From an uncultured Planctomycetia bacterium (GTDB taxonomy: Bacteria; Omnitrophota; Gorgyraeia; VGKH01; JBHPFN01): DNA of 64,000 nt. This document shows positions 15,664 to 39,017 of this stretch, piece after piece (within the stretch, counting starts at the first letter, position 1; each line of letters opens with the position of its first letter). The stretch spans positions 7,412-71,411 of the forward strand of contig CAYOSQ010000001.1 of the NCBI GenBank assembly GCA_964406665.1, given 5' to 3'. The translations under genes were made by a program, and so were the position numbers. The notes under the pieces were generated by a model, which did not search any database, was not told the origin of the DNA, and saw only the letters and a program-made list of their open reading frames with translations.

Positions 15664-15673
15664 CTCCCTTCCT

Positions 15674-21471: not shown

Positions 21472-23097
21472 TTAATTATTGTTTCTTCGAAAAGCAATTG
21501 GAACTTCTACACGAAGCTCATCTGCCCGCAACTGATAAGGAAAGGAAGGATAAGGATCCTCATTTTTTACTACCCCTAACGCAGCCTCATCCAATACCGC
21601 GTGTCCAGAAGATTCCTGGACGACAACTTCTTGCAATGAACCATTATCTGAAATAAGCAGGCTTAACCTTACAGTGCCTGACCAGCCTAATTCTTCTGCG
21701 TCTGCAGGATAGTATGCTGCGTTTAATATTTTAGTTTGCACCATCTGAACATATTCATTAAGCAGTCGCTGAACATCTTCTTGAGAAAACTCAACTGGTT
21801 TCTCTTCTTTTGACTCTTGAGCCTGAGCTTTTTTAATTTCTGAAACTATCGTTGGAGTAAGGGTGATAAATAACTCTACATTTCCTCTTTCTCCCTGACC
21901 GCCACCCATTTTAGTTTCTTTCTTTCTGAACAATGCTCCAATAATCGGAATGTCGCCTAAGAAAGCATTCTTTCTTATATCTTCTTCTAATTTTTCCTTA
22001 ATAATTCCACCGATAGCTAATGTCTGACCATTATCCAAATAAATCTCGGTTGAAATATTACGCTTGGTTAAAGGAAAGGCTTTAGCGGATGGAGCATTGG
22101 GGTCTCCGATAGTAATCGCGTCTCCGATTTCACTTACTTCAACATTAAGCCCAACATGAATTCTACCATCATCAATTGTGGGCTGAATATTAAGTTTGAT
22201 TCCATATTCCTTATACTCGATACTAGTTGAAGAAGCTCCACCTGATTGAACAGCGGTGCTGAACATCGGCTTCTCTCCGCCTACCAACAGCTCTGCTTCT
22301 TTTCCACTTGAGCATGTCAATCTCGGACGAGAAAGAATTCTCGCCTTACCTTCCTGCTCTAAGAAATCAACTGTGGCAGTAAGTGCATTTCTTGTCCAGT
22401 CGGATACATGGAATAATGCACTAAACCCTGTTACTGCGTTTGCAGTAGGGCCAGATGCTTCCAAAACAGAAAACTGTCCCGGCAGAGTAAACCCTAACGT
22501 CTTAGTTGCATCTCTATCCAATTCAAGAACCTGAACTTCTATATCAATAACGCCTTCGTCTTTAACTTGAAGGAGATCTATAGTCTGAGGGAATAATTCA
22601 CCTAATGCCAGCTCAATTAATTCTCTTTCCTCCTCGGTGGGAACATCTCCCAAAATAAGAATTCTACCTTCTTCGTGGTTAGCCTTTGTGTAAACATTAT
22701 CAAGCTTAAGCGGTTTCAACAAATTGTCAACGCGCCTTTTGGTGTTAGTCATGTCTGCAGTTAATACTCTAATCTCAAATGAGCGTTCTCCTAATTCATC
22801 CCAGACCACCAACGTTGTAGAACCTGCCCCCTTACCAGCTATGCTAACTGCATCTTCAGATACCTTGGTAATATCTGCAATCTGCGGATTACCAATAGCT
22901 ACTCTAGTAGGAGATTTTATGGGAAGAACTTTTATCTCCCCAATATATACTATTTCTTCGTTGTTTAAATATTCTTCAAAAGATATATCCTCAGCTGAGA
23001 TGATGACAGGTGAAACAAATAATAAAGAAATTAAAAAACAGCTGATGATATTTCTTCTGAAATGTTTCATTGTGTGATTCTTATATAAGCTCTTCAT
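21472..23097 (-). CDS. rcpA: Flp pilus secretin RcpA/CpaC with an additional C-terminal TonB-C-like domain
   Basis: Secretin C-domain FLGDIPIIGALFRKKE...VELFITLTPTIV. The last roughly 100 aa (AAYYPADAEELGWSGTVRLSLLISDNGSLQEVVVQESSGHAVLDEAALGVVKNEDPYPSFP...VEVPIAFR) match the TonB C-terminal domain pattern. Confidence 0.75.
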   Translation of the reverse strand: MKSLYKNHTMKHFRRNIISCFLISLLFVSPVIISAEDISFEEYLNNEEIVYIGEIKVLPIKSPTRVAIGNPQIADITKVSEDAVSIAGKGAGSTTLVVWDELGERSFEIRVLTADMTNTKRRVDNLLKPLKLDNVYTKANHEEGRILILGDVPTEEERELIELALGELFPQTIDLLQVKDEGVIDIEVQVLELDRDATKTLGFTLPGQFSVLEASGPTANAVTGFSALFHVSDWTRNALTATVDFLEQEGKARILSRPRLTCSSGKEAELLVGGEKPMFSTAVQSGGASSTSIEYKEYGIKLNIQPTIDDGRIHVGLNVEVSEIGDAITIGDPNAPSAKAFPLTKRNISTEIYLDNGQTLAIGGIIKEKLEEDIRKNAFLGDIPIIGALFRKKETKMGGGQGERGNVELFITLTPTIVSEIKKAQAQESKEEKPVEFSQEDVQRLLNEYVQMVQTKILNAAYYPADAEELGWSGTVRLSLLISDNGSLQEVVVQESSGHAVLDEAALGVVKNEDPYPSFPYQLRADELRVEVPIAFRRNNN

Positions 23098-23105: not shown

Positions 23106-24041
23106 TTATTGAGATAAGGGAACAACCTCTAATTCAAGCCCGCGAATAATCTCTACATCTTTACCTGAATAGATAGTTTCCCGAGGAGTGTCAATAATTT
23201 GTTTTGGCTTTCTCTTGGGTGCCTTACGAGGCATAATCTGATCAAGTAAAGCTTCTAAGTTAGCCGGTTCTATATCCTCAACTATTTCCTTGTCTTCGGG
23301 TGAACGCAATACCATCTGAATCTCACCTTGTTCGGTAACAAAAGCTAGCATGCTGGATTCTTGAGGAGTTAAGGCAACGGTGATAATCTTTGCTGGCTTA
23401 GTGACCTTTTTCCTCTTTTTTCCATCTTCAGCATATTTTTGAGGATCTTCATATCCTATATCTGTACCCACAGCAAGAACTAAAACATTTTGAAACACAG
23501 GATATACGAGCTCTTGCTTTTTCTTACTTTTTTTCTTGTCCTTTGTTTCTTCAACATAAGGGATAGTACATAAAATATCTACGTGGTCTCCGGGCTTTAA
23601 CATCCCACCTACAGATTGAATCTCTTTAACCTGAACTGCAATTGCTCTTTTACCTGCAGGCGTTGCCACTGATAGAGATGATGCCCTGGTTTTCCTTGGT
23701 CTTTTGGATGCTATTAACATACCTTTCAATATAGGTTCGCCTCTCTCGATATCTTTTCCGGCTGTCTTACCTACAACCTCGCCGAAAGAAGTAGCGATCC
23801 TAGGATCAAGCTGCTCTTTATAAATCATCACTACACCGAGCATCTCTGAGGTTATTGGAATCCCTGCAGAAATTTTTTGTTCAGCAACCAATATTCTTTC
23901 TTTTTGTTCCTGCAATTTCTCTGATGCCTGCCTAGCCCTTATAGCCAATGCTTGTGTTTGTTGATCAAGATAAATTTTTATCAATACAACAGCTAAAATC
24001 GCTAATACGCCACCGACTATCAAACTTATTCGTTTAGACAC
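23106..24041 (-). CDS. cpaB: Flp pilus assembly protein CpaB/RcpC (N-terminal TM anchor, SAF-like domain)
   Basis: RISLIVGGVLAILAVVLIKIY anchor and a GDHVDILCT motif typical of CpaB. Located immediately upstream of the secretin gene. Confidence 0.65.
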   Translation of the reverse strand: MSKRISLIVGGVLAILAVVLIKIYLDQQTQALAIRARQASEKLQEQKERILVAEQKISAGIPITSEMLGVVMIYKEQLDPRIATSFGEVVGKTAGKDIERGEPILKGMLIASKRPRKTRASSLSVATPAGKRAIAVQVKEIQSVGGMLKPGDHVDILCTIPYVEETKDKKKSKKKQELVYPVFQNVLVLAVGTDIGYEDPQKYAEDGKKRKKVTKPAKIITVALTPQESSMLAFVTEQGEIQMVLRSPEDKEIVEDIEPANLEALLDQIMPRKAPKRKPKQIIDTPRETIYSGKDVEIIRGLELEVVPLSQ

Positions 24042-24970
24042 TATTGTATCTCCCCTTCGTAATATTCGATTTTTGCCTTGTTAGAAAGATCGGCGATAAG
24101 CTGCTCAATTGCCGCCTGCTGCTTTACAAAAGTAAGTTCTCTTTTAATATCATCCCAGATATCAGACAATTCTTTTTGAGCACCGCCGCGTTTCTCCTCA
24201 AGCTTCACTATATAATATCCTTCCGGACCTTTAAAATAATTACTTGTTTTACCAACTTCCAAAGTATCTGAAAAAGCTTCAACATCAAACTGTGGAGATT
24301 TTACTCCTCTTTGTATAAAACCCAAATCTCCGCCCTTATCTTTACTGGCTGCCTTCGAACGTTCTACGGCCAAAGCAGCAAAATCGACTCCTTGATATAT
24401 TTGAATAATAACACCCCTTGCTTCCTCCTCGGTATTAACCACTATTTCGCGCAGATGTCTTTCTTCTGGATCTTTTAACTGTTCTTTATACGTTTCATAA
24501 AAATTATTTATTTCATCATATGTTACCACTACACTCTCGGCTTCTTTTCTCACCAACTCCATAACCAGAAGATCTGCTTTGGTTTTCTCTAAAATTCTTT
24601 GTATCTCAGGATTACTATCCAGCCCTCTGCTCTGTGCTTCTTGATAAAGCAAAGAACGACGCACCATTTCATTCTTTAAATATTCAACTTTCTGCTCGGG
24701 TGTGGTAATTTTTACTTCAGGCCTGTCTTCTGGCACTAAGGCATTAAAACTATCAACCTCTTCGTTAAGATCTTCTAGTACGATGGGATAATTGTTTACT
24801 TTTGCAACAACTGTGCCGGTTACCATGGGAATCTTGACCGACTTCGTTGCAGAAGTACCCGTTTTAGGTGGGCTTAAAAACGGAATTTGTTCACAACCGA
24901 TAAAATAAAAAGATATAATAACTAAGCATACAGCTACCACTAATCCTTTTAAAGACTTAAGGTTACTCAT
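24041..24970 (-). CDS. Parvulin-type peptidyl-prolyl cis-trans isomerase (SurA/PrsA-like), probable lipoprotein
   Basis: PpiC-type domain GGDLGFIQRGVKSPQFDVEAFSDTLEVGKTSNYFKGPEGYYIVKLEEKRG. Signal peptide ending in Cys (FIGC). Confidence 0.6.
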   Translation of the reverse strand: MSNLKSLKGLVVAVCLVIISFYFIGCEQIPFLSPPKTGTSATKSVKIPMVTGTVVAKVNNYPIVLEDLNEEVDSFNALVPEDRPEVKITTPEQKVEYLKNEMVRRSLLYQEAQSRGLDSNPEIQRILEKTKADLLVMELVRKEAESVVVTYDEINNFYETYKEQLKDPEERHLREIVVNTEEEARGVIIQIYQGVDFAALAVERSKAASKDKGGDLGFIQRGVKSPQFDVEAFSDTLEVGKTSNYFKGPEGYYIVKLEEKRGGAQKELSDIWDDIKRELTFVKQQAAIEQLIADLSNKAKIEYYEGEIQ

Positions 24971-25136: not shown

Positions 25137-26840
25137 TTATTCTACATTAGTCAACCACTGTATTCTTCCAATTGTAGCTCCAGAGCTTTCAGGGATAATA
25201 TCAAAATTTTCAAATTCTATTGCACCTTGTAAATATGGAATCTGGCCTGCATACTGTGGCACCTCTGAACGAATGAGAAGATTCCCCCGACTACCATCGC
25301 ATGCAAAATTAGCATCACAGTTTGAATAACACAATGATGACATCACTACACTGTCGCATAACCTATGACATTCGGATCTATATGCCAAATAGTTAGCAAT
25401 GCCTGGTCTTACGTTCAGCCAATGATAAATCTCCTGAAAATCTAAACACTCTTGCATGCACTGTCCGGGATTATCCAGAGCACAAAAATCTCTACACTCA
25501 TAATAACCGTCAACGGTTCCCAACTCTTCATTGTCTAAACATTTCCGAATACACTCTGTATCGCATTTGTCTACAGCACAACATTCTTGTACGCATCCAG
25601 ATTTTCCATATGCAAACTGATATTCTCTGGCACACCAACGCATACAATGATCAGGATCACACCTACGATGACATTCAGAATCAGGATGCTCTGGCTGTAA
25701 AATTTCTAAACAACTATTAAAACATTGATCTCTACACGCAATTCCCTTGCAATCTTTATCAATATTGCTGCACATTTTATAACAAGCAGAACCTTCCTCT
25801 AAATCACAATCGGCAACACAGCGAACCGAATCTGTAGGGTCATGTTCTTGTTGCAGGCAAAGCGTTTGACCAAGCAATGGTTCGTCATCAACTTGAAAAA
25901 AGTACTCAGGAGAATCATTAACACCGTTACCGGCAACATGGGCAAAGTGTTCAATAAATCCCGTCTGCAAATCCCAGGGAATATTATATTCCCCATAACA
26001 CGGTATACCGTCTCCGGCTACACAGGGAAATTCTCCTGTTTCGTCAAAGCCCTCGCCATCATCTACCCATTCTTCAAGCAACAATTCTGTTTTTCCCAAA
26101 GTAATATATATATCTTCACTTTTGTAAGAAAGATCCTCTCCCTCTGGGGAGTCATTTGGACCTTCAAGTTTATGATATTTAGCAGAATAACTTATATCAT
26201 ATTTTCCAGCAGGAAGACCTAAATTTGCAAAATAGATAATATTCTTACCTCCCATAAGCAGCTCCCCATCTTCTCCTATAGTTGCATCACCAACTTCAAT
26301 GTTCATAGGGGCAACATAGCTGTATTTTACTGAGCATTGTACTGTCTTTAATGTTGAGCCTCCTAATATAGGAACTGTTGCAGATGCAGTTAAAAGATAA
26401 ATGTAGTCTCCTGGGATAGGAGGTTTCCCTGCTCCAGAGCCGTAAGTGTCTACGCTGATTAATTGAGCAGTGTTTTTATTAATAGATTCAAGCTGTTCAG
26501 GTGTACATTCGAAGTGTCCGTGCCCGGTCCCACCAGTTTCCCCAGAACCTCTATCGGTTTCTGGCAAAGACCACTCAAACACTTCACCAATATCTTTCTG
26601 CTCTATGGGAAAATGCTTAGGGAATTCACCTGTGTCAAAGTAAACTTTTATCTCTTGGATTTTTTCTCTGGCAGCTGATTCTGCTAACCAGAGTGCTTGG
26701 GTGGTACCAATCTGTCTTTTAGTAGAAGATATTTCTCTTACCGAAGACATGAATACTCCGGTAATGATAGCACCGAAGAGAATACATAAACCTAAAGCAG
26801 TAATCAGAGCAAAGCTTTTTTTATTATTTGGTTTATTCAT
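25137..26840 (-). CDS. PilX_N-domain minor-pilin-like protein with a Cys-rich C-terminal domain (567 aa)
   Basis: The N-terminal KKSFALITALGLCILFGAIITGVFMSSVREISSTKRQIGTTQALWLAESAAREKIQEI matches the PilX N-terminal pattern. The C-terminus has ECHRRCDPDHCMRWCA and the tail LLIRSEVPQY..PYLQGAIEF...RIQWLTNV, shared with 26854-28734 and 31260-33038. Confidence 0.55.
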   Translation of the reverse strand: MNKPNNKKSFALITALGLCILFGAIITGVFMSSVREISSTKRQIGTTQALWLAESAAREKIQEIKVYFDTGEFPKHFPIEQKDIGEVFEWSLPETDRGSGETGGTGHGHFECTPEQLESINKNTAQLISVDTYGSGAGKPPIPGDYIYLLTASATVPILGGSTLKTVQCSVKYSYVAPMNIEVGDATIGEDGELLMGGKNIIYFANLGLPAGKYDISYSAKYHKLEGPNDSPEGEDLSYKSEDIYITLGKTELLLEEWVDDGEGFDETGEFPCVAGDGIPCYGEYNIPWDLQTGFIEHFAHVAGNGVNDSPEYFFQVDDEPLLGQTLCLQQEHDPTDSVRCVADCDLEEGSACYKMCSNIDKDCKGIACRDQCFNSCLEILQPEHPDSECHRRCDPDHCMRWCAREYQFAYGKSGCVQECCAVDKCDTECIRKCLDNEELGTVDGYYECRDFCALDNPGQCMQECLDFQEIYHWLNVRPGIANYLAYRSECHRLCDSVVMSSLCYSNCDANFACDGSRGNLLIRSEVPQYAGQIPYLQGAIEFENFDIIPESSGATIGRIQWLTNVE

Positions 26841-26853
26841 TAATTGCCACTAT

Positions 26854-28734
26854 TTAATTTACGTTAGTCAACCATTGAATTCTTCTAACCGTAGCCCCGG
26901 ATTCTTCCGGAACAATATCAAAGCTTTCAAACTGAACAGAACCCTGTAAATAAGGTAACGCATAGTGGTATTGTGGCACCTCTGAACGAATTAAAAGATT
27001 ACCTCTAAAATCATCACATAGAAAATAAGAATCACAGTTAGAAAAACAAGTCTTTTTACTAGATAAATTTTTGCATAGCCTATGACATTCAGACATAAAG
27101 CCTGCTGCTTCGGGAATGCCAGGCCTAACATTCTCTCCATTATAGTCTCTCTGAAAATTCAAAGCGCAATCATCCACGCACTCTCCGGGATTGTCTATAG
27201 CACAAAAATCTTTGCACTCTGTATATCCCTCTATAGCTTGTTTTTGCTTAAATGCACATTGAAGCAAACAATCTTGGTCACAGGCCGTTTTGCCACAACA
27301 TAATTCTACGCACTGAGAATGTATATATGCTGTTTCATACTCAAAGGCACACCAACGCATACAATGAACCGGGTCACACCTACGGTGACATTCAGAGTTT
27401 GGATGTTCTTTCTGAAAAATTTCTACGCAACCTTTATAGCATGGTCCGCCACAACCAGAACCTTCACAATCGTCATCAAGCTGTTCGCACATTTTGCTAC
27501 ACAAAGAATCCTCTTCTAGATCACAATCATCTTGATAAAATTCAAGCCTCGAAGGATCTAAAATATCATACAGACCTAAAAAGCTTTCAACCAAAGGATC
27601 ATCATCAACTTCAAAGTGATACTGCAGATCTTCGTTAACCCCGTTATCAGCAATATGGGTAAAGTTTTCAGCAAATCCTGTTTGTAAATCCCAGGGAATA
27701 TTATATTCGCCGTAACATGACATGTCATCTCCAGCAACACAAGGAAGTTCTCCGGCTTCATCAAAACCGTCACCGTCATCTACCCACTCTTGCAGAAGAA
27801 TTTCGCTTTTACCTAATCTAATGTAAAAATTCTCTTCTTGAAAAGGGCTAACTTTTTCTGCTTCCCGTAAACTACGGCCAATATGCTGATTATATTTTGC
27901 AACATAGCTCAAATCGTATCTACCTGCAGGCAGATCTAAATCTTTATAATAAATAATATTATCGACTCCCATCTTTATACGTCCATCTTCTCCTATAGTT
28001 GCATCACCAACTTCAATATTCATAGGAGCAACATAGCTGTATTTTACTGAGCATTGTACTGTCTTTGATGTTGAGCCTCCTAATATAGGAACTGTTGCAG
28101 ATGCGGTTAAAAGATAAATGTAGTCTCCTGGAATAGGAGGATCTCCTGTTCCAGAACCATAAAGATTGACGCTGATTAATTGAGCACTGGTGGCTATGAC
28201 TGGAATATCTAGAGCATCAACAATCTTTTCAATCTTTGCCTTCTGGGAAGATGCGCTTTTTGGCTGACTAGCGCCACCAGAGGCGGGAGGCAGACCTTTT
28301 GGCTGACTAGCGCCACCAGAGGCGGGAGGCAGACCTTTTGGCTGACTACCACCTCCTGAATCAGGCTCATGTCCTGAGGGATCTTCATGACTCCCGTCTT
28401 GATCATCTGGCATAAAACCCCACTCATACTCTTTACCTATATCTTTATCAGGGTCTACGGGGAAGTGTTTAGGGAATTCACCGATGTCAAAGTATGTTTT
28501 TATCTCTTGGATTTTTTCTCTGGCAGCTGATTCTGCTAACCAGAGTGCTTGGGTGGTACCAATCTGTCTTTTAGTAGAAGATATTTCTCTTACCGAAGAC
28601 ATGAATACTCCGGTAATGATAGCACCGAAGAGAATACATAAACCTAAAGCAGTAATCAGAGCAAAGCTTTTTTTATTATTTGGTTTTTTTATTACTTTCA
28701 CCCCACCTACTCCTGCAAAGAATTGATTGGCCAA
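26854..28734 (-). CDS. PilX_N-domain Cys-rich protein, tandem paralog (626 aa as tracked). The probable true start is the GTG near 28701 (V of GVKVIKKPNNKK), preceded by a GGAG RBS.
   Basis: The first roughly 62 aa after KKPNNKK are identical to the 567 aa paralog. It contains a 3x GGASQPKGLPPAS repeat, and its C-terminus has ECHRRCDPVHCMRWCA ... RIQWLTNVN. Confidence 0.55.
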   Translation of the reverse strand: MANQFFAGVGGVKVIKKPNNKKSFALITALGLCILFGAIITGVFMSSVREISSTKRQIGTTQALWLAESAAREKIQEIKTYFDIGEFPKHFPVDPDKDIGKEYEWGFMPDDQDGSHEDPSGHEPDSGGGSQPKGLPPASGGASQPKGLPPASGGASQPKSASSQKAKIEKIVDALDIPVIATSAQLISVNLYGSGTGDPPIPGDYIYLLTASATVPILGGSTSKTVQCSVKYSYVAPMNIEVGDATIGEDGRIKMGVDNIIYYKDLDLPAGRYDLSYVAKYNQHIGRSLREAEKVSPFQEENFYIRLGKSEILLQEWVDDGDGFDEAGELPCVAGDDMSCYGEYNIPWDLQTGFAENFTHIADNGVNEDLQYHFEVDDDPLVESFLGLYDILDPSRLEFYQDDCDLEEDSLCSKMCEQLDDDCEGSGCGGPCYKGCVEIFQKEHPNSECHRRCDPVHCMRWCAFEYETAYIHSQCVELCCGKTACDQDCLLQCAFKQKQAIEGYTECKDFCAIDNPGECVDDCALNFQRDYNGENVRPGIPEAAGFMSECHRLCKNLSSKKTCFSNCDSYFLCDDFRGNLLIRSEVPQYHYALPYLQGSVQFESFDIVPEESGATVRRIQWLTNVN

Positions 28735-29345
28735 ACTCCGTCTATTGATTTGAAAGAAATCGATGTATCAATATTGGGAACCTTCTTCTCCAAAGTCAAT
28801 TCAAAAAATAAAGTCTCTCCATCGTCATATTGTTGGTTTACCGCTATTGTTTCAGAAGATGAACAAGTAAAAGAAACAACATTGTCAGTTATAACCTGAG
28901 ACACACTTACCACGCCAGAATTATCTGTTCGCATTAAACATCCTGTATTAGAGTTAACGCTATACACAATATTCGTATTAGCGGGATAGTATTCGAGAAC
29001 ATAATCACAATCGCCCCCTTCTTCTCCACCTTCACAACTACTAATCCAAAGACTTCCGTCATTATTTATATCCTTAGGAAGTGCAGCTGAAATGACACAG
29101 TTATTTACAGAGTTATGGTTAAACATTAACTTCTGCAGACCGTTTGGTTTTGCATTTCTTAGTTCTGACACTAATATGTTGGTTGCTCTATTGGCTTTTT
29201 GTTGCAACTCTACAGCAGAAAGCTCTGAAAAACTATATCTCATGGTAACAGCAAGAGCTGTAGCTCCAATGCCTGCAACTATGCTGAAAATTAAAGCTAC
29301 CATTAATACTTCTGGTAAGGTAAAACCAATATTTCTTAGCTTCAT
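28707..29345 (-). CDS. Type IVa/T2SS-type minor prepilin (PilW/GspJ-like), leader G|FTLPEV
   Basis: RNIGFTLPEVLMVALIFSIVAGIG is a classical prepilin cleavage/methylation-type N-terminus with Glu at +5. Confidence 0.6.
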   Translation of the reverse strand: MKLRNIGFTLPEVLMVALIFSIVAGIGATALAVTMRYSFSELSAVELQQKANRATNILVSELRNAKPNGLQKLMFNHNSVNNCVISAALPKDINNDGSLWISSCEGGEEGGDCDYVLEYYPANTNIVYSVNSNTGCLMRTDNSGVVSVSQVITDNVVSFTCSSSETIAVNQQYDDGETLFFELTLEKKVPNIDTSISFKSIDGVWPINSLQE

Positions 29346-29782
29346 AAACCAACCTCTATATATTCATCTACAATTTTTCCGTCAGTAATCCATCTAACAC
29401 CTACCTGAACATGTAAAGGCCTATCGGGCAATCCCGGAGACGCAGGAAGGTCATCTATGTATTCAACAGAAATCTTTTCTTCGGGAAGATATGGCGGATC
29501 GATCCAATCCCTTATATCAGGAGCTACTCCTTCGGGAAAATGTGTGATGTAAACAGCTTGGATACCTTCTTTTACTTCTATGCTTTTTAATATTTCTACT
29601 AAACGTTGGGCGTGTAAAGTTGCGGTCATCTGCTGGCCTAAAAGAATACGTAGTTGCCTGGCACAGGCAAAAGTTTTACCTGCTGCTACAAAAATAGCAA
29701 CAACAACTAGCAGAGAAATAAGAATCTCTACAAAAGATACTCCCAAGCGATTTTTGGAAAATACCTTAATCATTATATTCAA
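29342..29782 (-). CDS. Type IVa/T2SS-type minor prepilin (PilV/GspI-like), leader G|VSFVEI
   Basis: NRLGVSFVEILISLLVVVAIFVAAG. Paralogous to the divergently encoded 30136-30576. Confidence 0.55.
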   Translation of the reverse strand: MNIMIKVFSKNRLGVSFVEILISLLVVVAIFVAAGKTFACARQLRILLGQQMTATLHAQRLVEILKSIEVKEGIQAVYITHFPEGVAPDIRDWIDPPYLPEEKISVEYIDDLPASPGLPDRPLHVQVGVRWITDGKIVDEYIEVGL

Positions 29783-29890
29783 TATACCATAGAAATAATT
29801 CTGTACATAGAAAAATTTAAGGGAAAATATGTGGGGGCTTCGATGGTTTTATTATTTTAAGAATACAGTTAAATTATGTTTTTTCTTATC

Positions 29891-29918
29891 TTGAAAAGAC
29901 GCTATCTCGTGTTATACT
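29891..29918 (+). promoter_or_regulatory. Candidate sigma70 promoter in the divergent intergenic region (TTGAAA-16 nt-TATACT) for the plus-strand minor-pilin cassette
   Basis: The 353 bp divergent gap 29783-30135 is AT-rich. The plus-strand gene at 30136 has an AAGGAG RBS. Confidence 0.3.
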
Positions 29919-30135
29919 TTTATAGTAAGCATAAACAGTTGATTGAACGCACTGTCTGTTAAAGATGGGCATTCAGAGACAAGTAAATTTACCTCTGACC
30001 CTTGTGAAAGACAAGATGCAGGTCTTTCCAACACAACGTTATTAGCCTTATTTCACATTCAGGGTAATTACTGGGTCAAAAATTGAAACCTATCTTTTCG
30101 GCTTAGATAAAGATGGGTTTTTTTAAGGAGATCGC

Positions 30136-30576
30136 ATGCGTTACGCAAAAAACAAAAAAGGCATGATGATGCTATTGGAGGTCTTGGTTTCTTCGGTGGT
30201 TACCACCATCGTCGTTGCCGTAATGACTCTTACCTTGGTGCAGGAAAGAAATTTTCGCGCAACCCTAGGAGAACAAATGATAGCCACGTTTCATGCGCAA
30301 CGAATTATTGAGACGATGAAAAAGATAGAAAAACAAAGTGGCATAGAAGCAGTATACAACAATCCCTATTTTCCCGTAAACGACGAAGTAGTATGGAGCA
30401 ATTGCGATTGCATTGATGGGATTCTATTGCCGGGAGAAGTGGCAAAAATTACCTATCCTGATGGCCCGCTGCCACCGCCGGGCACGCTTCCTCCACGACC
30501 CTTACGTGCGCGCGTTGAAATTTTATGGAATAATAACGGTCGAACGCTCACCGAGGTTATGGAGGTAAATCTATAA
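30136..30576 (+). CDS. Minor prepilin (PilV/GspI-like), mirror paralog of 29342-29782
   Basis: KKGMMMLLEVLVSSVVTTIVVAV. An EQMIATFHAQRIIETMKKIE block is shared with the minus-strand paralog (QQMTATLHAQRLVEILKSIE). Confidence 0.55.
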   Translation: MRYAKNKKGMMMLLEVLVSSVVTTIVVAVMTLTLVQERNFRATLGEQMIATFHAQRIIETMKKIEKQSGIEAVYNNPYFPVNDEVVWSNCDCIDGILLPGEVAKITYPDGPLPPPGTLPPRPLRARVEILWNNNGRTLTEVMEVNL

Positions 30577-30578
30577 AA

Positions 30579-31235
30579 ATGACCCTCCATCCTTATTTAC
30601 GATTTTGTACATACCGATATAAAAAGAAGTCTGCTTCTTCTAAGGGGACTATTCTCATAGAAATGCTTATCGCTGTATTGATTATTGCACTTATCTCAGG
30701 TGTTGTAGGCGGCTTGTTGATTGCTCTCTCGCGGTTTTATTTTACCGAAATGGTTAAAACGGAACTTCAACAAAAAGGAAATCGCTCTATTACTCTTCTT
30801 GTTACAGAATTACGCGATGCGCAATCGCAGGGAACAGATATTTTAACCTTTACCCATGACAGCAACGGTAATTGTATAATCGATGCCTTTCTTCCCTACG
30901 ACGTCAATGACGATGATAGTCTTTGGAATTTAGCCTGTGATGAAGAAGGAAGACATTGTGATTTTAACATTGAATACGATGCTGCCGGCCAAATGCAGTA
31001 TATGGTTGATATGACGACTAACCAACTACAGCGCGTTTATACCAATGGAGTAGCATTGGTGCTATGCAATAATGTAAGAACGTTTATGTGTGCAGAGCCT
31101 GTTGGAGATGCGAATCAGTACGACGAAGGCGAGATGCTTTCGCTACGTCTTGAATTGTCCAAAGAAATTCCTTACCTTGGTCAAACGGCAGAAATAATTT
31201 TGGAAGATGGTGTATGGCTGGTGAATTCGCTCTGA
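30579..31235 (+). CDS. Minor prepilin (PilW/GspJ-like), leader G|TILIEM; paralog of 28707-29345
   Basis: SKGTILIEMLIAVLIIALISGVVGG with ELQQKGNRSITLLVTELRDA, compared with ELQQKANRATNILVSELRNA in the paralog. Confidence 0.6.
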   Translation: MTLHPYLRFCTYRYKKKSASSKGTILIEMLIAVLIIALISGVVGGLLIALSRFYFTEMVKTELQQKGNRSITLLVTELRDAQSQGTDILTFTHDSNGNCIIDAFLPYDVNDDDSLWNLACDEEGRHCDFNIEYDAAGQMQYMVDMTTNQLQRVYTNGVALVLCNNVRTFMCAEPVGDANQYDEGEMLSLRLELSKEIPYLGQTAEIILEDGVWLVNSL

Positions 31236-31259
31236 TATATTGAAAGGAGTATTCCTTAA

Positions 31260-33038
31260 ATGTTAGGCATTTATTCTCGCAAAGGACAAGTAGTTATTAT
31301 TACCTTAATACTTGTTGTTGCCTTCGCTGCAATCACCGCCAGCTTGTTTATGTCTTCTGTAGGTGAATGGATTTCTACGCGTCGCCAGCGCGACACAACA
31401 AAAGCAGTATGGGTTGCTGAGGCTGGCCTGCAACAGAGGATGCGAGATATAGAAACATGGTTTAATAACGGGCCTTTTCCTACAAACTTTCCCGTTGATT
31501 CTGATGAAATTGGTGACACGTATACGTGGCAAAACACTACTTTTTTCGGCGGAAACTACAATTCAAGTGCAACACTTATTCATATACGGGAATATGCTCC
31601 GGATACTCCGGATTATGTTCAGGAAGATCCACCTTCTGCAGAATATGTGTATTTAATTGAAGCAGAGGCAAATATATCCGCTCTCCCAGGACCTCAAGGA
31701 TTTACCACGCGCAAAGCCCAATGTGCAGTAGCATATGACTATCTTGGTCCAACCATATTTATAGATAGAGACAACAGAACATTAGGCAGAAGAGGAGCAA
31801 CGATTTTTGCTTCCGGAGGCATCTACAGATTAGCCAATATTATGCATTTCGGCAATCTAGATTTACCTCCAGGAAGATATAGCATGTCTTTTAGATCAGT
31901 CTATACTCAAGTTGCTGGCCCTCCTCTTCCTCCCAATAATGCTTCATACCCTTTGGCCCATGAAGATGCTTATATACATTTGGGCGACTCAAATATTTTA
32001 CTTGAGGAATGGACGGATGACGGCGATGGCTTTGAAGTAGACGGAGTGACTCCCTGCGTTGCTAATGATAGCGTTGTCTGTTACGGCGAATATAATATTC
32101 CCTGGGAGATGCAGAACTCTCATGAAGAATGGTATGAACATATTGATGAAGATGGAGTCCATGAAAATCCTCTGTATACTTTTGAAATCTCAGATGAAGA
32201 AGAAACTGAAATAGCAGAGTTCGCCTGCCACGGCGGAACACCTTCAGATCAAGATGCCGAAGAAGGCTCTTCAGGTTTTGTAGGCACCTGCTGGAATGAT
32301 CTTGATTTAGAAGAAGATTCAACCTGTAGCCAATTTTGCAACACCATTGACGACGCTTGTATCGGGCAAGATTGTATAACTCAATGCTGGGATGGCTGTC
32401 TTGACAATTTTCAGTGGAACCATCCTGATTCCGAATGTCATCGTAGATGCGAACCAATACATTGCATGAGATGGTGTGCGCAGGAATACCAACTTAAATA
32501 TCCCCAATCAGAATGCAACTTACTCTGTGCATCCGAGGCAGACCAAGCAAGCTGTGTGCAAACATGCATTGCTGATGAACAAAGCGGGCAAAACGGCAGA
32601 GAAGAATGCAAAGATTTCTGCGGAATTGAACCGCCAAATGGAATGACACAAATGGAAGCTTGCTTAACCGAATGTACTCTGGATACCACTGGGCTCCAAT
32701 TGGTATATGATGGGTCGTGGCATTCTGCATTTCTCTCGGAATGTCACAGAATCTGTGACAACATTACAGGCCCTCAACAATGTTTGGATAATTGTGATTT
32801 CTTATTCTTTAGAGAAGACATTCAAGGAGATATGCTGCTACGTACAGAAATAGGTCAATTTGATAACCAAAGACCATATCTACAAGGAGCTATGGAGTTT
32901 GATAAGCTTATTTTAACACCGGAAGACCCAGGTGCAAGCATCACTGACGTACAATGGATAACCAACCCTAGCCGCATAGAGATGCCACCAGAAGATCATC
33001 ATGGTAGGCATGCTGAAGAATTCGAACAATCATTTTAA
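31260..33038 (+). CDS. PilX_N-domain protein with a Cys-rich C-terminal domain (592 aa), third paralog
   Basis: The N-terminal LILVVAFAAITASLFMSSVGEWISTRRQRDTTKAVWVAEAGLQQRM is PilX_N-like. The C-terminus has HPDSECHRRCEPIHCMRWCAQEYQ ... LLRTEIGQF..PYLQGAMEF...VQWITN. Confidence 0.55.
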   Translation: MLGIYSRKGQVVIITLILVVAFAAITASLFMSSVGEWISTRRQRDTTKAVWVAEAGLQQRMRDIETWFNNGPFPTNFPVDSDEIGDTYTWQNTTFFGGNYNSSATLIHIREYAPDTPDYVQEDPPSAEYVYLIEAEANISALPGPQGFTTRKAQCAVAYDYLGPTIFIDRDNRTLGRRGATIFASGGIYRLANIMHFGNLDLPPGRYSMSFRSVYTQVAGPPLPPNNASYPLAHEDAYIHLGDSNILLEEWTDDGDGFEVDGVTPCVANDSVVCYGEYNIPWEMQNSHEEWYEHIDEDGVHENPLYTFEISDEEETEIAEFACHGGTPSDQDAEEGSSGFVGTCWNDLDLEEDSTCSQFCNTIDDACIGQDCITQCWDGCLDNFQWNHPDSECHRRCEPIHCMRWCAQEYQLKYPQSECNLLCASEADQASCVQTCIADEQSGQNGREECKDFCGIEPPNGMTQMEACLTECTLDTTGLQLVYDGSWHSAFLSECHRICDNITGPQQCLDNCDFLFFREDIQGDMLLRTEIGQFDNQRPYLQGAMEFDKLILTPEDPGASITDVQWITNPSRIEMPPEDHHGRHAEEFEQSF

Positions 33039-33063: not shown

Positions 33064-33106
33064 TCGAAAAAAAAGAGCTGGTGATAAAAACACCAACTCT
33101 TTTTAA
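33064..33106. terminator. Bidirectional rho-independent terminator between the plus-strand pilin cassette and tRNA-Glu
   Basis: An 11 bp stem AAGAGCTGGTG / CACCAACTCTT (one mismatch) with a 7 nt loop, flanked by an A-run upstream and a T-run downstream. Confidence 0.5.
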
Positions 33107-33215: not shown

Positions 33216-33375
33216 AATAAATACGTATGATTATTCTACCAAAAAAAATAGCGGAGTCAATCCTAAATTTTGCTCTGTAAAAATAAAAAATGTCAAAGAA
33301 TAAGCTCATAACTCAATAAAACTATTGACACTCCCAAGCGGTAAAGCTACAATAAAAACACAAAAAGGAAATTTT

Positions 33376-34566
33376 ATGTCCACATTAATTGGCATCGGGG
33401 TCAGCTCGTCTGCCGACGCACAACGGGCCGCTCGCGAAGCAACGCAATTAGCAAAATTTCAAATAGGTCAAGAAGACCTTGATTTAATTATAGCTTTCTC
33501 CTCTCTGCGCTCGAGCCATCAAAACATCATTACTGGTATTCGAGAGGTTGCCTCAGCTGCTAAAATTATCGGCTGTTCTACCGCAAGCGTTATACTCAAT
33601 TCCGGAGTCGAAAAAGACACTGTTGCTATCATGGCTATCCGCTCAAAACAGATGAAGTTCGGATTAAGCTGTGAAGCTGATTTAGCAGGAAAAGATCCGC
33701 GTGCCGCAGGACAAAACCTAGCAAAAGCAGCCATGGCCAATTTAGGATACGGACACCGTAATGTTTTTACTATGTTTTCCGACGGACTGATCCAAAACAC
33801 AACAGATATTATCCGGGGAGTCCAGGATGTGCTGGGAAAAAGCTTTCTTTTTATTGGCGGTGCTGCCAGCGATGATTTACGATTTACAACAACATACCAA
33901 TATTTCCAAAACCAAGTTCTTACCGATAGCGCTCTGGGTCTGCTCTGGGGAGGAGATATTCACTATGGCTTTGGTATTCAGCATGGCTGGAAACCGATAG
34001 GTAAAGCCAGAACAGTAACTTCGTGTGAAGGCAGAATAATTAAAACCATAGATAACGCTGCAGCAATCAGCATCTATAAAGATTATTTTGGAGAAGAAGC
34101 AAACAATCTTTATAAAACAAAATTGGCGCGGACTGCTATTCTTTATCCTTTAGGTATTTATTTAGAAGATGAACAAGAGCATATTTTACGTAACGTACTG
34201 GAAGTAACCGAGGATGGCTTTCTTGTTTGCCAAGGAGACATACCCAAGGGTGCATCTATACGCCTGATGATTGGTAACAAAGACTCATGCATACAGGCCG
34301 CAAGACAAGCAGCAGAAGAAGCAAAAAATATGTTGCATTCTAAGCAGCCAAAATTTATTATGGTAATTGATTCTGTTTCCAGAAATAAGCTTCTGCAGAG
34401 AAACGCTGTGAAAGAAATTGAAGCGATAACAGAGGTGTTTGATAAAAGTGTTCCGTTAATCGGTTTTTACAGTTTTGGCGAAAGCGCTCCGCTTAAAACG
34501 CTAGGCTATCAAGGACAAGCATACTTTCACAATGAAGCTATTGCTATATTGGTAATAGCAGAATAA
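33376..34566 (+). CDS. FIST-domain sensory protein. The track start at 33325 is a TTG; the ATG at 33376 with an AAAGGAAA RBS is preferred.
   Basis: STLIGIGVSSSADAQRAAREATQLAKFQIGQEDLDLIIAFSSL...IIGCSTASVI matches the FIST N/C-domain pattern. Confidence 0.55.
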   Translation: MSTLIGIGVSSSADAQRAAREATQLAKFQIGQEDLDLIIAFSSLRSSHQNIITGIREVASAAKIIGCSTASVILNSGVEKDTVAIMAIRSKQMKFGLSCEADLAGKDPRAAGQNLAKAAMANLGYGHRNVFTMFSDGLIQNTTDIIRGVQDVLGKSFLFIGGAASDDLRFTTTYQYFQNQVLTDSALGLLWGGDIHYGFGIQHGWKPIGKARTVTSCEGRIIKTIDNAAAISIYKDYFGEEANNLYKTKLARTAILYPLGIYLEDEQEHILRNVLEVTEDGFLVCQGDIPKGASIRLMIGNKDSCIQAARQAAEEAKNMLHSKQPKFIMVIDSVSRNKLLQRNAVKEIEAITEVFDKSVPLIGFYSFGESAPLKTLGYQGQAYFHNEAIAILVIAE

Positions 34567-34571
34567 AAACT

Positions 34572-36083
34572 ATGGACTCATTACTGCAAAATTTAAGCGT
34601 TGATGTAATCATTGACTGGCTAGGTTATATTTCACTGTTTTGTGTTATCTGCCTTATAGTAGTGCTTCTGGGAAAGGGAGAAAAAATAAAACAGCAGCGA
34701 CAAAGCTTGGAAAAACTACAAAAATCTTTTGACCAACTTGACGAACAAGCAAAGCTAATCGTTAAGACAGACCTTGAGCTTAATAAAACCCAGGAAGAGC
34801 TAGATAAAAAGGTTACTGGATTATATGCCTTACAAAGCATCTCTCACCTGGTCAGTACTACGCTTGATGAAAACGAAATTTTTGCACGCATCAGCCAAAA
34901 TTTAGTTGCCTCTCTAGGATTTGAAAAAGCGCTAATACTTATGTTCGATAAAGAACATAAAAACGTCTGGAAAACCACCTTAGGGTTTTCACAGGAACAA
35001 TTAAACATGTTTTTGATTCTTCTGGAAAAAGATCCTATCTTAAAGCAAGCAGCAAAAGAAGGCAAAACAATTAACTCATCTCATGTTTCCATAAAAGAAA
35101 TTGAACAGCTTTCTCAAACAATAGATGTTGCTTTTTTCATTATTTCTCCTATCCTAACCCAAGATGGAGTAATCGGTATCATGCTTGTGGGAAATAGCTC
35201 GATGGCTCCCGCCCTAACCGAAGGTGACCAAGAAATTGTTTCTATTCTCTCCACTCAATTGGGACAATCTATAGAAAATGCTCGCTTATTTGAACAAGTT
35301 TATAATTCCCATCAAGATCTGGAAAAGAAAGTAAAGATCAGAACCAAAGAACTCGCCGAGGCACTGGAGCAGGTCAAAAAAATCAGCAAAGCAAAATCGC
35401 AATTTGTCTCAGCTGTTTCACACGAATTAAGAACTCCTCTTACATCTATCAAAGGATATGCGGCAATTTTAATGGCCGGGACAATCGGTGAAATACCTGA
35501 TAAAATAAAAGAACGTCTTGAAAAAATAAATAAACACAGCGATAGTCTGGTTCAGCTAATAAACAACCTTTTAGATATTTCCAGAATTGAATCCGGCAGA
35601 GTCGCAATGAAACTTGAAGAGTGTGACTTAAAAGAAATGGTTCTTTCTGTTGCTGATATGCTGGTTCCTCAAACTAAAGAAAAGAAAATCAAGCTCGTGG
35701 CCAATGTGCCAGAAAACCTTTCTAAGATTTCAGCAGACACAAGTCAGATAGAGCGCGTATTTATTAATCTTTTAAGCAACGCAATAAAATTTACTCCGGA
35801 AAATGGTACAATAACGGTAGATATAAAAGAGATCCCCGGCGAAGCTATTGAAGCTTCTGTAACAGACACAGGTGTTGGTCTTGCCGAGGATGATCTTGCT
35901 AATGTATTTGAAGAATTTTACCGAGTAGACAATGCAATTAACCAAACGGTTAAAGGAACCGGCCTTGGGCTGCCTCTGGTAAAATATATTGTTGAAGCTC
36001 ATCAAGGAAAAATCTGGGTAAAGAGTACGCCAAACGAAAAAACTACTTTCACTTTTACTTTACCAAAAAAACAACAGGGATAA
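34572..36083 (+). CDS. Sensor histidine kinase (TM anchor, coiled coil, GAF-like domain, HisKA and HATPase_c domains)
   Basis: H-box SHELRTPLTSIKGY, N-box LLSNAIKFTPENG, G-boxes DTGVGL and GTGLGLPLV. Confidence 0.8.
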   Translation: MDSLLQNLSVDVIIDWLGYISLFCVICLIVVLLGKGEKIKQQRQSLEKLQKSFDQLDEQAKLIVKTDLELNKTQEELDKKVTGLYALQSISHLVSTTLDENEIFARISQNLVASLGFEKALILMFDKEHKNVWKTTLGFSQEQLNMFLILLEKDPILKQAAKEGKTINSSHVSIKEIEQLSQTIDVAFFIISPILTQDGVIGIMLVGNSSMAPALTEGDQEIVSILSTQLGQSIENARLFEQVYNSHQDLEKKVKIRTKELAEALEQVKKISKAKSQFVSAVSHELRTPLTSIKGYAAILMAGTIGEIPDKIKERLEKINKHSDSLVQLINNLLDISRIESGRVAMKLEECDLKEMVLSVADMLVPQTKEKKIKLVANVPENLSKISADTSQIERVFINLLSNAIKFTPENGTITVDIKEIPGEAIEASVTDTGVGLAEDDLANVFEEFYRVDNAINQTVKGTGLGLPLVKYIVEAHQGKIWVKSTPNEKTTFTFTLPKKQQG

Positions 36084-36086
36084 AAT

Positions 36087-37022
36087 ATGTTAAAAACAAA
36101 AATCTTAACAGTTGATGATGATCCAGACATTCTGGATATTTTAAAGATTACCTTAACCGATGCTGGATACGAAGTAATCTCTGGGTCCGATGGAGAAAAA
36201 GGCCTACAGCTGGCTAGAACAAAATCTCCTAATCTTGTAATACTTGATTTTAATATGCCTAAGATGAACGGCCGCGAGGTCTGCCGGACATTAAAAGAAG
36301 ATATTCTCTTGCGACACCTTCCTATTATCATGCTTACCGGAAGGGGAGAAATCACTGATAAGGTTGGTGGAATAGAAGCCGGTGCGGACGATTATATAGT
36401 AAAACCTTTTGAGCCACAAGAACTCTTAGCTAGAATAAGAATGTTGCTGCGTAAAACAGAACGCGATCTTGATGCCAATCCTCTCTCTCGCCTTCCTGGA
36501 AACGTTTCCATTATGAGCGCACTGCAACAGCGTATTGATGGAAAATCAAAGTTCGCCGTAGGCTATGTAGATTTAAATAAATTTAAGGCATATAATGATA
36601 AGTATGGCTTTGAGCACGGAGATGATGTTATTAGAGAAACTGCTCGTATAATTTTAAGGACCACTAAAGCGCTCGGAGACCCTAATGACTTTACCGGACA
36701 TATTGGCGGAGATGATTTTGTTTTTATTACCTCTCTTGATAAATCCGATGCGATCTGCAAAAAAATAATTCAGGATTTTGATGCTTGTGCTCCTAGTTTT
36801 TATAATGAAGATGATCGGGCCAAAGGGTTTATTGCTGGTAAAGACCGCCAAGGAAATATGAGAGAAATCCCTCTGCTCTCTGTCTCTATCGGCGTAGTTG
36901 CTAATGATTCACGCGAAATTACTCACGTTGCAGAAATCGGAGAAATCGGAGCAGAGTTAAAAGAATACGCTAAAAGTCTTAAAGGAAGTAACTATGTAAA
37001 AGACAAGCGAAAAGAGATATAG
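36087..37022 (+). CDS. Response regulator with a receiver domain plus a GGDEF-family domain carrying a non-canonical GGDDF motif and no RxxD I-site
   Basis: REC: ILTVDDDPDILDIL..D...LVILDFNMPKMNG. GGDEF domain: LSRLPGN...VGYVDLNKFKAYNDKYGFEHGDDVI...HIGGDDFVFI. Confidence 0.7.
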   Translation: MLKTKILTVDDDPDILDILKITLTDAGYEVISGSDGEKGLQLARTKSPNLVILDFNMPKMNGREVCRTLKEDILLRHLPIIMLTGRGEITDKVGGIEAGADDYIVKPFEPQELLARIRMLLRKTERDLDANPLSRLPGNVSIMSALQQRIDGKSKFAVGYVDLNKFKAYNDKYGFEHGDDVIRETARIILRTTKALGDPNDFTGHIGGDDFVFITSLDKSDAICKKIIQDFDACAPSFYNEDDRAKGFIAGKDRQGNMREIPLLSVSIGVVANDSREITHVAEIGEIGAELKEYAKSLKGSNYVKDKRKEI

Positions 37023-37040
37023 TTAGTTGTTTAATCAATT

Positions 37041-38213: not shown

Positions 38214-38563
38214 AGTTTGCAAAGAAAACCTGCATTGCCATACTTATCATCTTATGCTTGTTAAGCTTAACCTGTTCACCTGCATTCGCTCAGAGAGCGC
38301 TAAGAAAACTAGGAAGAGGAGTTACTAATGCCGCTTTGGGTTGGACTGAAATATTAACCTGCATAGAGCTTACCGGGAAAGAATCTGGACCAATGGCTGG
38401 AGCGTCTTACGGATTGTTAAAAGGACTGGTAAATTCTGCGTTGCGCACTGTTGTTGGACTATATGAAACAGTGACGTTTATTGCTCCTGCTCCGGAAGAA
38501 TATAAGGTAATTCTTGAGCCGGAATTTCCTATGCAAAAAGAAATGTTGAAGCTCGCTGATTAA
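38210..38563 (+). CDS. Small secreted protein resembling the exosortase-system-associated TIGR04073 family
   Basis: Signal peptide followed by LRKLGRGVTNAALGWTEIL...GLLKGLVNSALRTVVGLYETVTFIAP, which matches my recollection of the TIGR04073 consensus (KLGRG..N...GW.E...G...G...G..R...G..E..TF). Confidence 0.4.
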   Translation: MKFAKKTCIAILIILCLLSLTCSPAFAQRALRKLGRGVTNAALGWTEILTCIELTGKESGPMAGASYGLLKGLVNSALRTVVGLYETVTFIAPAPEEYKVILEPEFPMQKEMLKLAD

Positions 38564-38599
38564 GATTAATTAAAAAGTATTTGTATGGTTGAAATAGCT

Positions 38600-38634
38600 G
38601 TGCCCGCCTAATTTCAGGCGGGCACAATTTTTTT
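38600..38634 (+). terminator. Rho-independent terminator
   Basis: A 9 bp GC-rich stem GTGCCCGCC/GGCGGGCAC with an 8 nt loop, followed by TTTTTTT. Confidence 0.6.
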
Positions 38635-38648
38635 ACCTTAATTAATTC

Positions 38649-38735
38649 TGGTGCGCGGGAGAGGACTTGAACCTCCATGAGATTACTCCCACTACCCCCT
38701 CAAAGTAGCGCGTCTGCCAATTCCGCCACCCGCGC
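38649..38735 (-). tRNA. tRNA-Leu (anticodon GAG), long variable arm, CCA encoded
   Basis: Reverse complement GCGCGGGTGGCGGAATTGGCAGACGCGCTACTTTGAGGGGGTAGTGGGAGTAATCTCATGGAGGTTCAAGTCCTCTCCCGCGCACCA. Anticodon loop TTGAGGG. Confidence 0.75.
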
Positions 38736-39008: not shown

Positions 39009-39017
39009 ATATTCTCC

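Follow-up and report, generated by a model that had tools for sequence, protein, structure and literature searches.

A 64-kb window of contig CAYOSQ010000001.1, from an uncultured Omnitrophota bacterium, carries a mirrored cassette of genes for pilin-like proteins, the subject of this analysis; the window is the whole stretch that was analysed, and all coordinates are in its numbering. The cassette comprises seven intact open reading frames (ORFs) in two divergent arms, a proximal arm on the minus strand and a distal arm on the plus strand, each with the order small, medium, large, the proximal arm ending in a second large gene (Table 1). The coordinates and lengths of the seven ORFs and the 353-bp gap between the arms agreed with those of the sequence-only reading from which we started. 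The arms are paralogous: the small proteins are 38% identical across the gap (E 3e-18), the medium proteins 39% (E 2e-47) and the large proteins 36–40%, while the two tandem large proteins (567 and 626 aa) share 60–64% identity. A sigma-70-like site lies on the plus strand within the gap (29891–29918); the promoter scan of this gap returned 35 sites where 25 +/- 5 were expected, with no enrichment over shuffled sequence.

Table 1. Features of the mirrored cassette and its flanks (arrow, boundary between positions −1 and +1 of the leader)
Feature	Coordinates	Strand	Basis or remark
Proximal-arm small minor pilin, 146 aa, GspI/PilV-like	29342..29782	-	ORF, weak XpsI match and leader
Proximal-arm medium minor pilin, 212 aa, GspJ/PilW-like	28707..29345	-	N_methyl/TIGR02532 above cutoff
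Modular K-like minor pilin (large), first of the tandem pair, 626 aa	26854..28734	-	TTG start
Modular K-like minor pilin (large), second of the tandem pair, 567 aa	25137..26840	-	Protein used for the structure model
Distal-arm small minor pilin, 146 aa, GspI/PilV-like	30136..30576	+	38% identical to proximal copy; weak PilV/GspI matches
Distal-arm medium minor pilin, 218 aa, GspJ/PilW-like	30579..31235	+	Shares 39% identity with its proximal counterpart (212 aa)
Distal-arm K-like large modular minor pilin, 592 aa	31260..33038	+	Leader SRKG↓QVVII
Divergent intergenic region between the arms, 353 bp	29783..30135	.	
Cys-rich helical module, 567-aa protein, residues 344-511	25308..25811	-	Ten helices, one Cx3C pair each
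Cys-rich helical module, 626-aa protein, residues ~403-570	27025..27528	-	Alignment and Cys spacing
Cys module, 592-aa protein	~32298-32807	+	
Direct repeat D1, 244 nt, 95% identical to 28454-28697	26602..26845	.	5' ends of both tandem K-like genes
Terminator-like hairpin past the 592-aa gene	33079-33095		
Parvulin/SurA-like peptidyl-prolyl isomerase (PPIase) lipoprotein, first gene past the K-like pair	24041..24970	-	Pfam Rotamase families
RcpC	23106-24041	-	Tad core
Secretin (RcpA-type) fused to TonB_C	21472-23097	-	Tad core
TadZ(ParA/MinD)-TadA(T2SSE) fusion	19304-21457	-	Tad core
FIST sensor, GAF histidine kinase, response regulator-GGDEF	33325..37022	+	Flank of the distal cassette; kept in L096

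Sequence places the small and medium proteins among the type IV prepilins of the type IVa (T4a)/type II secretion system (T2SS) class. The 212-aa protein matches the Pfam N_methyl domain (PF07963) at 21.4 bits against a cutoff of 21.2, and TIGR02532 at 22.4 against 16.3. The 218-aa protein (N_methyl, 14.1 bits) and both 146-aa proteins of the window fall below the cutoff on their own, and orthologues of both families lie above the N_methyl/TIGR02532 cutoffs, with scores of 23.2 bits for a 136-aa protein of assembly GCA_042571725.1 (locus L082) and of 31.6 and 22.1 bits for proteins of 151 and 175 aa in GCA_042567325.1 (L083). The leaders of three of the four proteins, NRLG↓VSFVE (proximal 146 aa), NIG↓FTLPE (212 aa) and SSKG↓TILIE (218 aa), fit the prepilin pattern of a short basic leader ending in Gly, followed by a hydrophobic helix with Glu at +5 (Glu+5); the Glu precedes an aliphatic residue, unlike the E(Y/F) of Flp-type leaders. 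A profile of the medium family matched type IV pilin N-termini in the PDB (E 2e-6).

The sequence-only reading had gone further and called these proteins PilV/GspI-like and PilW/GspJ-like. The prepilin class held up, but every curated I- or J-family profile scored below its cutoff. For the small family the best specific NCBIfam matches are PilV, XpsI and GspI, confined to the N-terminal ~55 residues; of the GspI/PilV profiles (TIGR01707, TIGR02523, NF047828), PilV reached 23.4 bits against 52.2 and XpsI 18.1 against 150, the 151-aa protein of the sibling trio (L083_151) scored 32.5 against the GspI cutoff of 44.35, and the small L082 orthologue had PilV as its best match (E 6.7e-5). The best specific matches of the medium family are GspJ/PpdB-type and again lie in the N-terminal part: among the GspJ/PilW profiles (TIGR01711, PF27121 PpdB), PRK10557 gave 13.5–17 bits, and L083_183 scored 19.3 against 64.85 for GspJ. 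NCBI names the relatives P0029–P0031 'PilW family protein' or 'type II secretion system protein J'. The I and J labels are thus weak assignments drawn from N-terminal similarity, size and gene order, not from the globular domains; the small proteins may work like I-type pilins while scoring below the cutoffs of the formal GspI/PilV families.

Anchor sequence and the fold of a structural model identify the large proteins as K-like, that is GspK/PilX-class, modular minor pilins. All nine K-like proteins compared carry T, I, L, M or V at +5 and none carries Glu, unlike the J-like and most I-like proteins, which have Glu+5; PilK homologues invariably lack it (PMC13533445). The leader of the 592-aa protein has Gly at −1, as do most relatives, and the gene order small-medium-large is that of I-J-K. 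These proteins had been described as bearing PilX_N domains, and profile–profile comparison bears this out for the anchor: aligned with the PilX_N-bearing proteins P0016, P0017, P0021 and P0022, a set itself recruited by the large-family profile, the anchor profile gave an hhalign probability of 99.5% (E 8e-23, 88 columns), and P0017 passes Pfam PilX_N at 27.7 bits. Of the GspK/PilX/PilK-class profiles (PF14341 PilX_N, NF037980), Pfam PilX_N applied directly to the large proteins does not reach its gathering score (see below), and the GspK N-terminus profile scored 14 bits against a cutoff of 130. Compared with the Tad (tight adherence)-type anchors of the same locus, the anchor profile gave a probability of 1.8%, and neither TadE (PF07811) nor Tad (PF13400) matched at E<=1 in the seven cassette proteins and 11 family members.

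The 567-aa protein was modelled with AlphaFold from a 12-sequence alignment (predicted local distance difference test score, pLDDT, 71.8; predicted template modelling score, pTM, 0.59); a model from a 4-sequence alignment (pLDDT 35) was discarded. The model places helix alpha1 at residues 7–70 and a four-strand pilin sheet at 120–182, giving a GspK-like pilin fold whose top structural match is the T2SS pseudopilin GspK; in a Foldseek search of the PDB with the whole model nothing was found at E<=1e-3, and a PDB sequence-profile search with the large family returned a chance match only. Residues 201–326 together with 513–562 form a beta-sandwich that may be CBM-like, a lectin-like jelly roll of the carbohydrate-binding module families 6, 35 and 36 (CBM6/35/36-type). 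Between its two halves lie the ten helices of the Cys-rich module (352–511). The Cx3C cysteines are the most conserved residues of the family, present in 11 of 12 sequences, and the occurrence of one Cx3C pair in each of ten helices suggests five helical hairpins, each with two putative disulfide staples. Such Cx3C...Cx3C disulfide-stapled hairpins are known from plant alpha-hairpinins and the twin-Cx3C small Tim proteins, where two helices are joined by two parallel staples. Each large protein has 27–33 cysteines and is strongly acidic (net charge −45 to −68). No match could be attributed to the Cys-hairpin block; this head is probably a new and very rare domain. No CxxCH heme motif occurs in the large proteins, which rules out a multi-heme cytochrome.

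The Cys-rich region had been proposed to be a C-terminal domain shared by the three large proteins. The motif ECHRRC(D/E)PxHCMRWCA and a conserved tail are indeed present in all three. The homology, however, extends over the full length of the proteins rather than a C-terminal part, and the Cys-rich region (residues ~344–511 of the 567-aa protein) precedes conserved beta-strands, so it is an internal module; the extreme C-terminal strand (..GAT..IQWLTN, residues 554–562) is conserved and predicted to be beta. The proposal that the module is unrelated to the giant proteins encoded at 5–12 kb was confirmed: comparison with the 732-aa Cys-rich protein of the Tad locus (9.9–12.1 kb) gave an hhalign probability of 3.6%, and kinship with it was rejected. 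The 626-aa protein carries a Gly/Ser/Pro-rich insert in a variable loop, and its gene contains two exact 39-nt repeats (28258–28335, minus strand) and a degenerate third copy (67%, 28336–28374), which encode GGASQPKGLPPAS. In a relative, the I-like protein of the distal cassette (L096, 7654–8334) has a Gly/Ser-rich insert of ~90 residues; low-complexity spacers seem to be tolerated in cassette pilins.

Taken with the gene order, these features make it probable that each arm encodes a GspI/J/K-class (PilV/W/X-class) trio that would form the initiation and tip complex of a type IV filament. Several observations weigh against this. The distal 146-aa protein (NKKG↓MMMLLE) has its Glu at +6, and Gly stands at +5 in one relative. 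At −1 the 567- and 626-aa proteins carry Ser instead of Gly, which may hinder cleavage by prepilin peptidase. Pfam PilX_N (PF14341) is sub-threshold, at 15.5 bits against 25.5 and in the 592-aa protein only (one of 11 family members). For the globular parts of the small and medium proteins, PDB profile searches gave no specific match, and none to a GspI or PilV globular domain, and the 64-kb window holds no prepilin peptidase, PilY1 or GspH/FimU-like fourth pilin. The Ser at −1 in two of the three large proteins and the weak PilX_N score, along with the high cysteine content and Cys/His motifs such as ECHRRC and HCMRWC, would also fit large proteins that are uncleaved, signal-anchored inner-membrane proteins exposed to the periplasm or surface, perhaps redox-active or metal-binding, and not filament subunits at all. 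We consider this quite improbable: two bona fide prepilin genes invariably stand ahead of the large genes, giving the order I-J-K, heme motifs are lacking, the placement of one Cx3C pair per helix in paired helices has the geometry of structural disulfide staples, and Gly is found at −1 in the 592-aa copy and most relatives.

It is extremely improbable that misassembly created the mirrored layout or the tandem duplicate. The arms, at 36–40% protein identity and with a longest inverted repeat between them of 113 nt at 73%, are too diverged to be a collapsed repeat, and the same two-arm, two-copy layout (592–218–146 diverging from 143–212–626–567–PPIase) was assembled independently in at least three other samples (ENA ERZ23498660, ERZ23499057 and ERZ23499040); four further contigs, from JGI, span the divergent gap. 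The observation that speaks for an artefact is JGI contig L001, 99.4–99.8% identical to the window, which lacks exactly one 1852-bp unit and has a single recombinant large gene (3303–5048) in place of two. Its junction falls within the 244-nt, 95% identical repeat D1, as expected either of genuine recombination between the copies or of a collapse in the L001 assembly rather than in the window. The mirror duplication noted by the sequence-only reading is therefore real, but in GCA_042571725.1 the two cassettes are apparently in direct orientation, which makes the inversion a lineage-specific event and not a design feature. Two variants concern the first large copy: in another assembly its gene call begins 11 codons later, giving 615 aa, and in one sample (L090, 6530–8218) it ends prematurely, ahead of the conserved C-terminal beta-strands. 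The length differences do not reflect repeat-length polymorphism in the 626-aa copy, since the 615-aa call is an alternative start and a 562-aa call a C-terminal truncation.

The tandem copies record two histories. In windowed comparisons of the proportions of nonsynonymous (pN) and synonymous (pS) differences, residues 1–80 and 121–200 are homogenised (pS 0–0.26), and from residue ~200 onward the pair is anciently diverged (pS 0.5–0.8). Ratios of nonsynonymous to synonymous change (dN/dS) are mostly 0.1–0.5, with peaks of 0.93 in loop 81–120 and 0.69 at residues 401–441, so all large copies look like maintained genes. Comparison of the sequences thus gives the large copies the look of conserved anchors joined to diverged bodies.

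The large-protein family is very small. An exhaustive HMMER search of 1.84 billion protein representatives found ~10 members, all from Omnitrophota-type metagenome-assembled genomes (MAGs) or metagenomes; a word-indexed search of 5.8 billion clusters returned the window's own proteins and one strain variant only, and a homologue search with an 11-sequence alignment returned only three known close proteins. Scans of genome contigs with the large-family alignment found nothing, the peptide patterns being too specific, and neither did a scan of metagenome contigs with alignment A6. The MAGs that contain relatives of the cassette are labelled Candidatus Omnitrophota by NCBI, and the best matches of the window's Dxs protein are from Candidatus Omnitrophota MAGs (59% and 54%).

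In GCA_042571725.1 (L082) the co-directional order small-medium-large-PPIase-RcpC-secretin-TadZ/A-DUF192 is kept, as are both the TadZ-TadA and secretin-TonB_C fusions. The Tad core is 52–74% identical to that of the window and the cassette proteins only 34–46%. A second cassette of this genome (L096) lies between a FIST–histidine kinase–GGDEF module and the first cassette, and orthologous pairs do not occupy matching positions: the proximal I/J pair of the window is nearest the relative's distal pair. In one trio of GCA_042567325.1 (L083) the large position is taken by three Cys-rich genes in tandem (685, 657 and 631 aa), with an FKBP lipoprotein gene after them, and nearby is a second trio whose third protein, of 509 aa, is unrelated; no Tad gene was present within ~10 kb either side of the P0007 gene. 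More distant J-like relatives belong to orphan trios, often as tandem pairs, whose third proteins are large but of other kinds and in some cases bear DUF4900. Trios with a variable third subunit are thus a general theme in the phylum, with the Cys-rich head as one rare variant. Two orphan trios stand in tandem in L097 (9603–16449) and in L099 (9544–16603), with a further one in L098 (9404–12237); all adjoin FHA and trypsin-like protease genes, not pilus machines.

The minus arm continues co-directionally into a Tad-like locus, which, besides the core genes of Table 1, holds DUF192, TadG-like and other large proteins, and TadB/TadC. A PPIase lipoprotein gene follows the Cys-rich large genes wherever downstream genes are visible: directly, and of parvulin/SurA type, in the window and L082 (4382–5320), and ~600 bp downstream, of FKBP type and after two small ORFs, in L083 (12503–13054). 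The lipoprotein may be a dedicated folding factor. Eight consecutive small ORFs (71–162 aa; 13112–16143, minus strand) with Flp/TadE-type leaders, (A/G)↓QSxxEY/F, are unusually many for one Tad locus, and one of them, the 71-aa ORF at 15448–15663, has the appearance of the major Flp pilin. A gene for a 799-aa protein (16391–18790, minus strand), placed between the Flp genes and TadZ-TadA, has a product with a long, highly acidic, Glu/Pro/Lys-rich repetitive centre and no Pfam match. The locus also encodes two Cys-rich pilin-like paralogues of 756 aa (5228–7498, minus strand) and 732 aa (9925–12123, minus strand), 56% identical overall and near-identical in their first ~120 residues, with a G↓QSILG anchor lacking Glu+5; this unrelated pair repeats the conserved-anchor, diverged-body pattern of the 567/626 pair.

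On the other side, the plus arm is followed by a tRNA-Glu gene and a FIST/GAF-histidine kinase/response regulator-GGDEF module. The series FIST, GAF-histidine kinase, response regulator-GGDEF, tetratricopeptide repeat protein and CsgG-like lipoprotein occurs in both the window (33325–39923) and L096 (594–6882), and the retention of this flank in a relative with 52–74% Tad core identity hints at control of the locus by cyclic di-GMP (c-di-GMP). The window is chromosomal (dxs, rny, pheST, gltX). Amid the housekeeping genes, a 500-aa ORF (55333–56835, minus strand) encodes a Peptidase_S74 domain of the endosialidase/tail-fibre intramolecular chaperone type.

Turning to the machine that the trios serve, there is nearly an even chance that it is the adjacent Tad-like apparatus. 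The argument for it is synteny: the cassette-PPIase-RcpC-secretin-TadZ/A-DUF192 order in L082 and the FIST–histidine kinase–GGDEF flank in L096. The link to Tad genes was seen in the window, L001, L087–L095 and L082 and is not universal, as it is missing in L083 and L084. Other evidence points away from it. The cassette leaders and N_methyl matches are of the T4a/T2SS class (G↓FTLxE type), not Flp/TadE; the large-protein anchors match PilX_N and not the Tad domain; the Tad locus is already equipped with its own Flp/TadE/TadG-type pilins and large proteins, carrying PF13400 and (A/G)↓QSxxEY leaders; related trios in L083, L084, L097, L098 and L099 are not beside Tad genes; and most Omnitrophota encode a type IVa pilus (T4aP) (PMC10066038). 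All of this suits trios that serve a T4aP (PilBCMNOPQ and PilD) encoded elsewhere in the genome, with the Tad adjacency reflecting co-regulation or history, and orphan location is common for T4aP minor-pilin operons. We consider this explanation nearly as likely as the Tad apparatus. It sits poorly with the tight co-directional synteny retained while the Tad core diverged to 52–74% identity, with the lack of any T4aP core gene in the 64-kb window, and with a cassette that has no PilY1 or FimU/GspH partner.

Alternatively, the trios could tip a short, T2SS-like pseudopilus that drives substrates, such as the large Cys-rich proteins encoded nearby in the locus, out through the RcpA-type secretin, so that their role would be secretion and not adhesion. 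The GspK match of the model and the NCBI name 'type II secretion system protein J' for relatives point this way, as does the co-occurrence of large secreted-looking proteins with secretion and pilus genes in Omnitrophota (bioRxiv 10.64898/2026.06.07.730766). The probability of such a pseudopilus is nevertheless small, since neither a GspG-type major pseudopilin nor GspC/L/M/D is encoded in the window, the machine has the TadZ-TadA, TadB/C and RcpC architecture, an exposed K-like head of ~380 residues with a putatively lectin-like sandwich is more typical of adhesive modular pilins, and several diversified heads argue for target recognition.

The closest known tip and initiation complexes are GspI-GspJ-GspK of the T2SS (PDB 3CI0; XcpVWX, 5VTM) and PilV-W-X or PilI-J-K of T4aP. 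The locus differs from these in lacking GspH/FimU, PilE, PilY1 and GspG nearby, in the duplication of the cassette and triplication of K within a Tad locus, and in matching all curated I/J/K families below cutoff. In place of the GspK alpha-domain, the extra domain is a putatively CBM-like sandwich with five putative Cx3C hairpins. TadG/CpaL of Caulobacter and ComZ of Thermus are K-analogues with a large insertion before a C-terminal beta-strand donated in cis (PMC13533445). Like CpaL and ComZ, the large proteins are pilin-like, ~600 residues long and putatively apical, and a large insertion separates their N-terminal pilin domain from a conserved, predicted C-terminal beta-strand; there is no sequence similarity to TadG, CpaL or ComZ, and the anchor class differs from that of TadG. 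Modular minor pilins of Streptococcus sanguinis (PilB and the glycan-binding PilA-PilC tip; PMC8179133, PMC9934059) belong to type IV pili of a monoderm and carry grafted von Willebrand factor A (vWA) and concanavalin-like modules, with no Cys-hairpin block and no paralogous trios. The Verru_Chthon cassette proteins A–D (TIGR02596–02600) likewise occur in an environmental phylum as repeated cassettes whose prepilin-like members are graded in size, but with four genes as against three here, and the matches to B and C are faint (10.8–15.1 bits against cutoffs of 51.4 for B and 256.5 for C) and limited to the leader and helix.

As an analogy, the nearest functional precedent is the Kil Tad pilus of Myxococcus xanthus, with its four paralogous kilL/M/N 'Tip' trios, in which the large subunit forms the distal end and bears a variable domain that lacks a PDB homologue and has many predicted disulfides (Herrou et al. 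2025, PMC12075869). In both systems several paralogous minor-pilin sets, each of three genes, lie in linkage with a Tad-type machine, the organisms are predatory or host-dependent, and interchangeable tips have been proposed. The Kil Tips, however, are TadE/TadF/TadG homologues, unrelated in sequence to the trios described here with their T4a/T2SS leaders and PilX_N-type anchors, and their function was shown genetically in Myxococcus.

We propose a mechanism for the trios that follows GspIJK/PilIJK (PDB structure 3CI0; PMC13533445 for the model). The two pilins bearing Glu+5, small and medium, would pair, and the Glu-less large subunit would take the apical position; the trimer would prime polymerisation and then cap the filament at its tip. 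In this arrangement the N-terminal pilin domain would anchor the large subunit in the tip, with the sandwich and five-hairpin block as a rigid, acidic, outward-facing head, and the extreme C-terminal strand may return in cis to complete the beta-sheet, as in CpaL, ComZ and GspK. With three heads that differ, and near-identical anchors under two of them, the cell could fit its filaments with alternative tips, probably so as to attach to different surfaces or host cells. Alternative tips would fit the homogenised anchors and diverged bodies, the maintenance of all copies, and the greater divergence of the cassettes than of the Tad core. The earlier suggestion of putative tip adhesins of differing specificity is reasonable. 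Possibly, T4a/T2SS-class tip trios were recruited to a Tad (type IVc) machine, so that one Flp filament could be capped either by its native TadG-like proteins or by any of three PilX-class heads, each a novel stack of disulfide-stapled Cx3C hairpins on a lectin-like sandwich, as cross-class swappable tips with which ultra-small host-dependent bacteria would recognise different hosts under FIST/c-di-GMP regulation; this fuller scheme we regard as unlikely.

Omnitrophota are abundant, uncultured and mostly ultra-small bacteria, thought to be predators or parasites; Tad and type IV pili head the list of structures by which they may attach to hosts (PMC10066038). The locus supplies concrete candidate tip proteins for this phylum, and diversified copies on conserved anchors are the signature expected of target recognition. 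Swappable pilus tips are a known idea; what is new is a GspK/PilX-class minor pilin family with a putative new head domain, arranged in paralogous trios beside a Tad machine. If the trios instead serve a T4aP encoded elsewhere, they would represent an unusual but otherwise ordinary modular family of PilX-type minor pilins. If they cap the adjacent Tad filament, the 'adaptable tip' concept from Myxococcus (PMC12075869) would extend to another phylum, and pilins of one class would serve the machine of another, which would bear on how tip complexes evolve.

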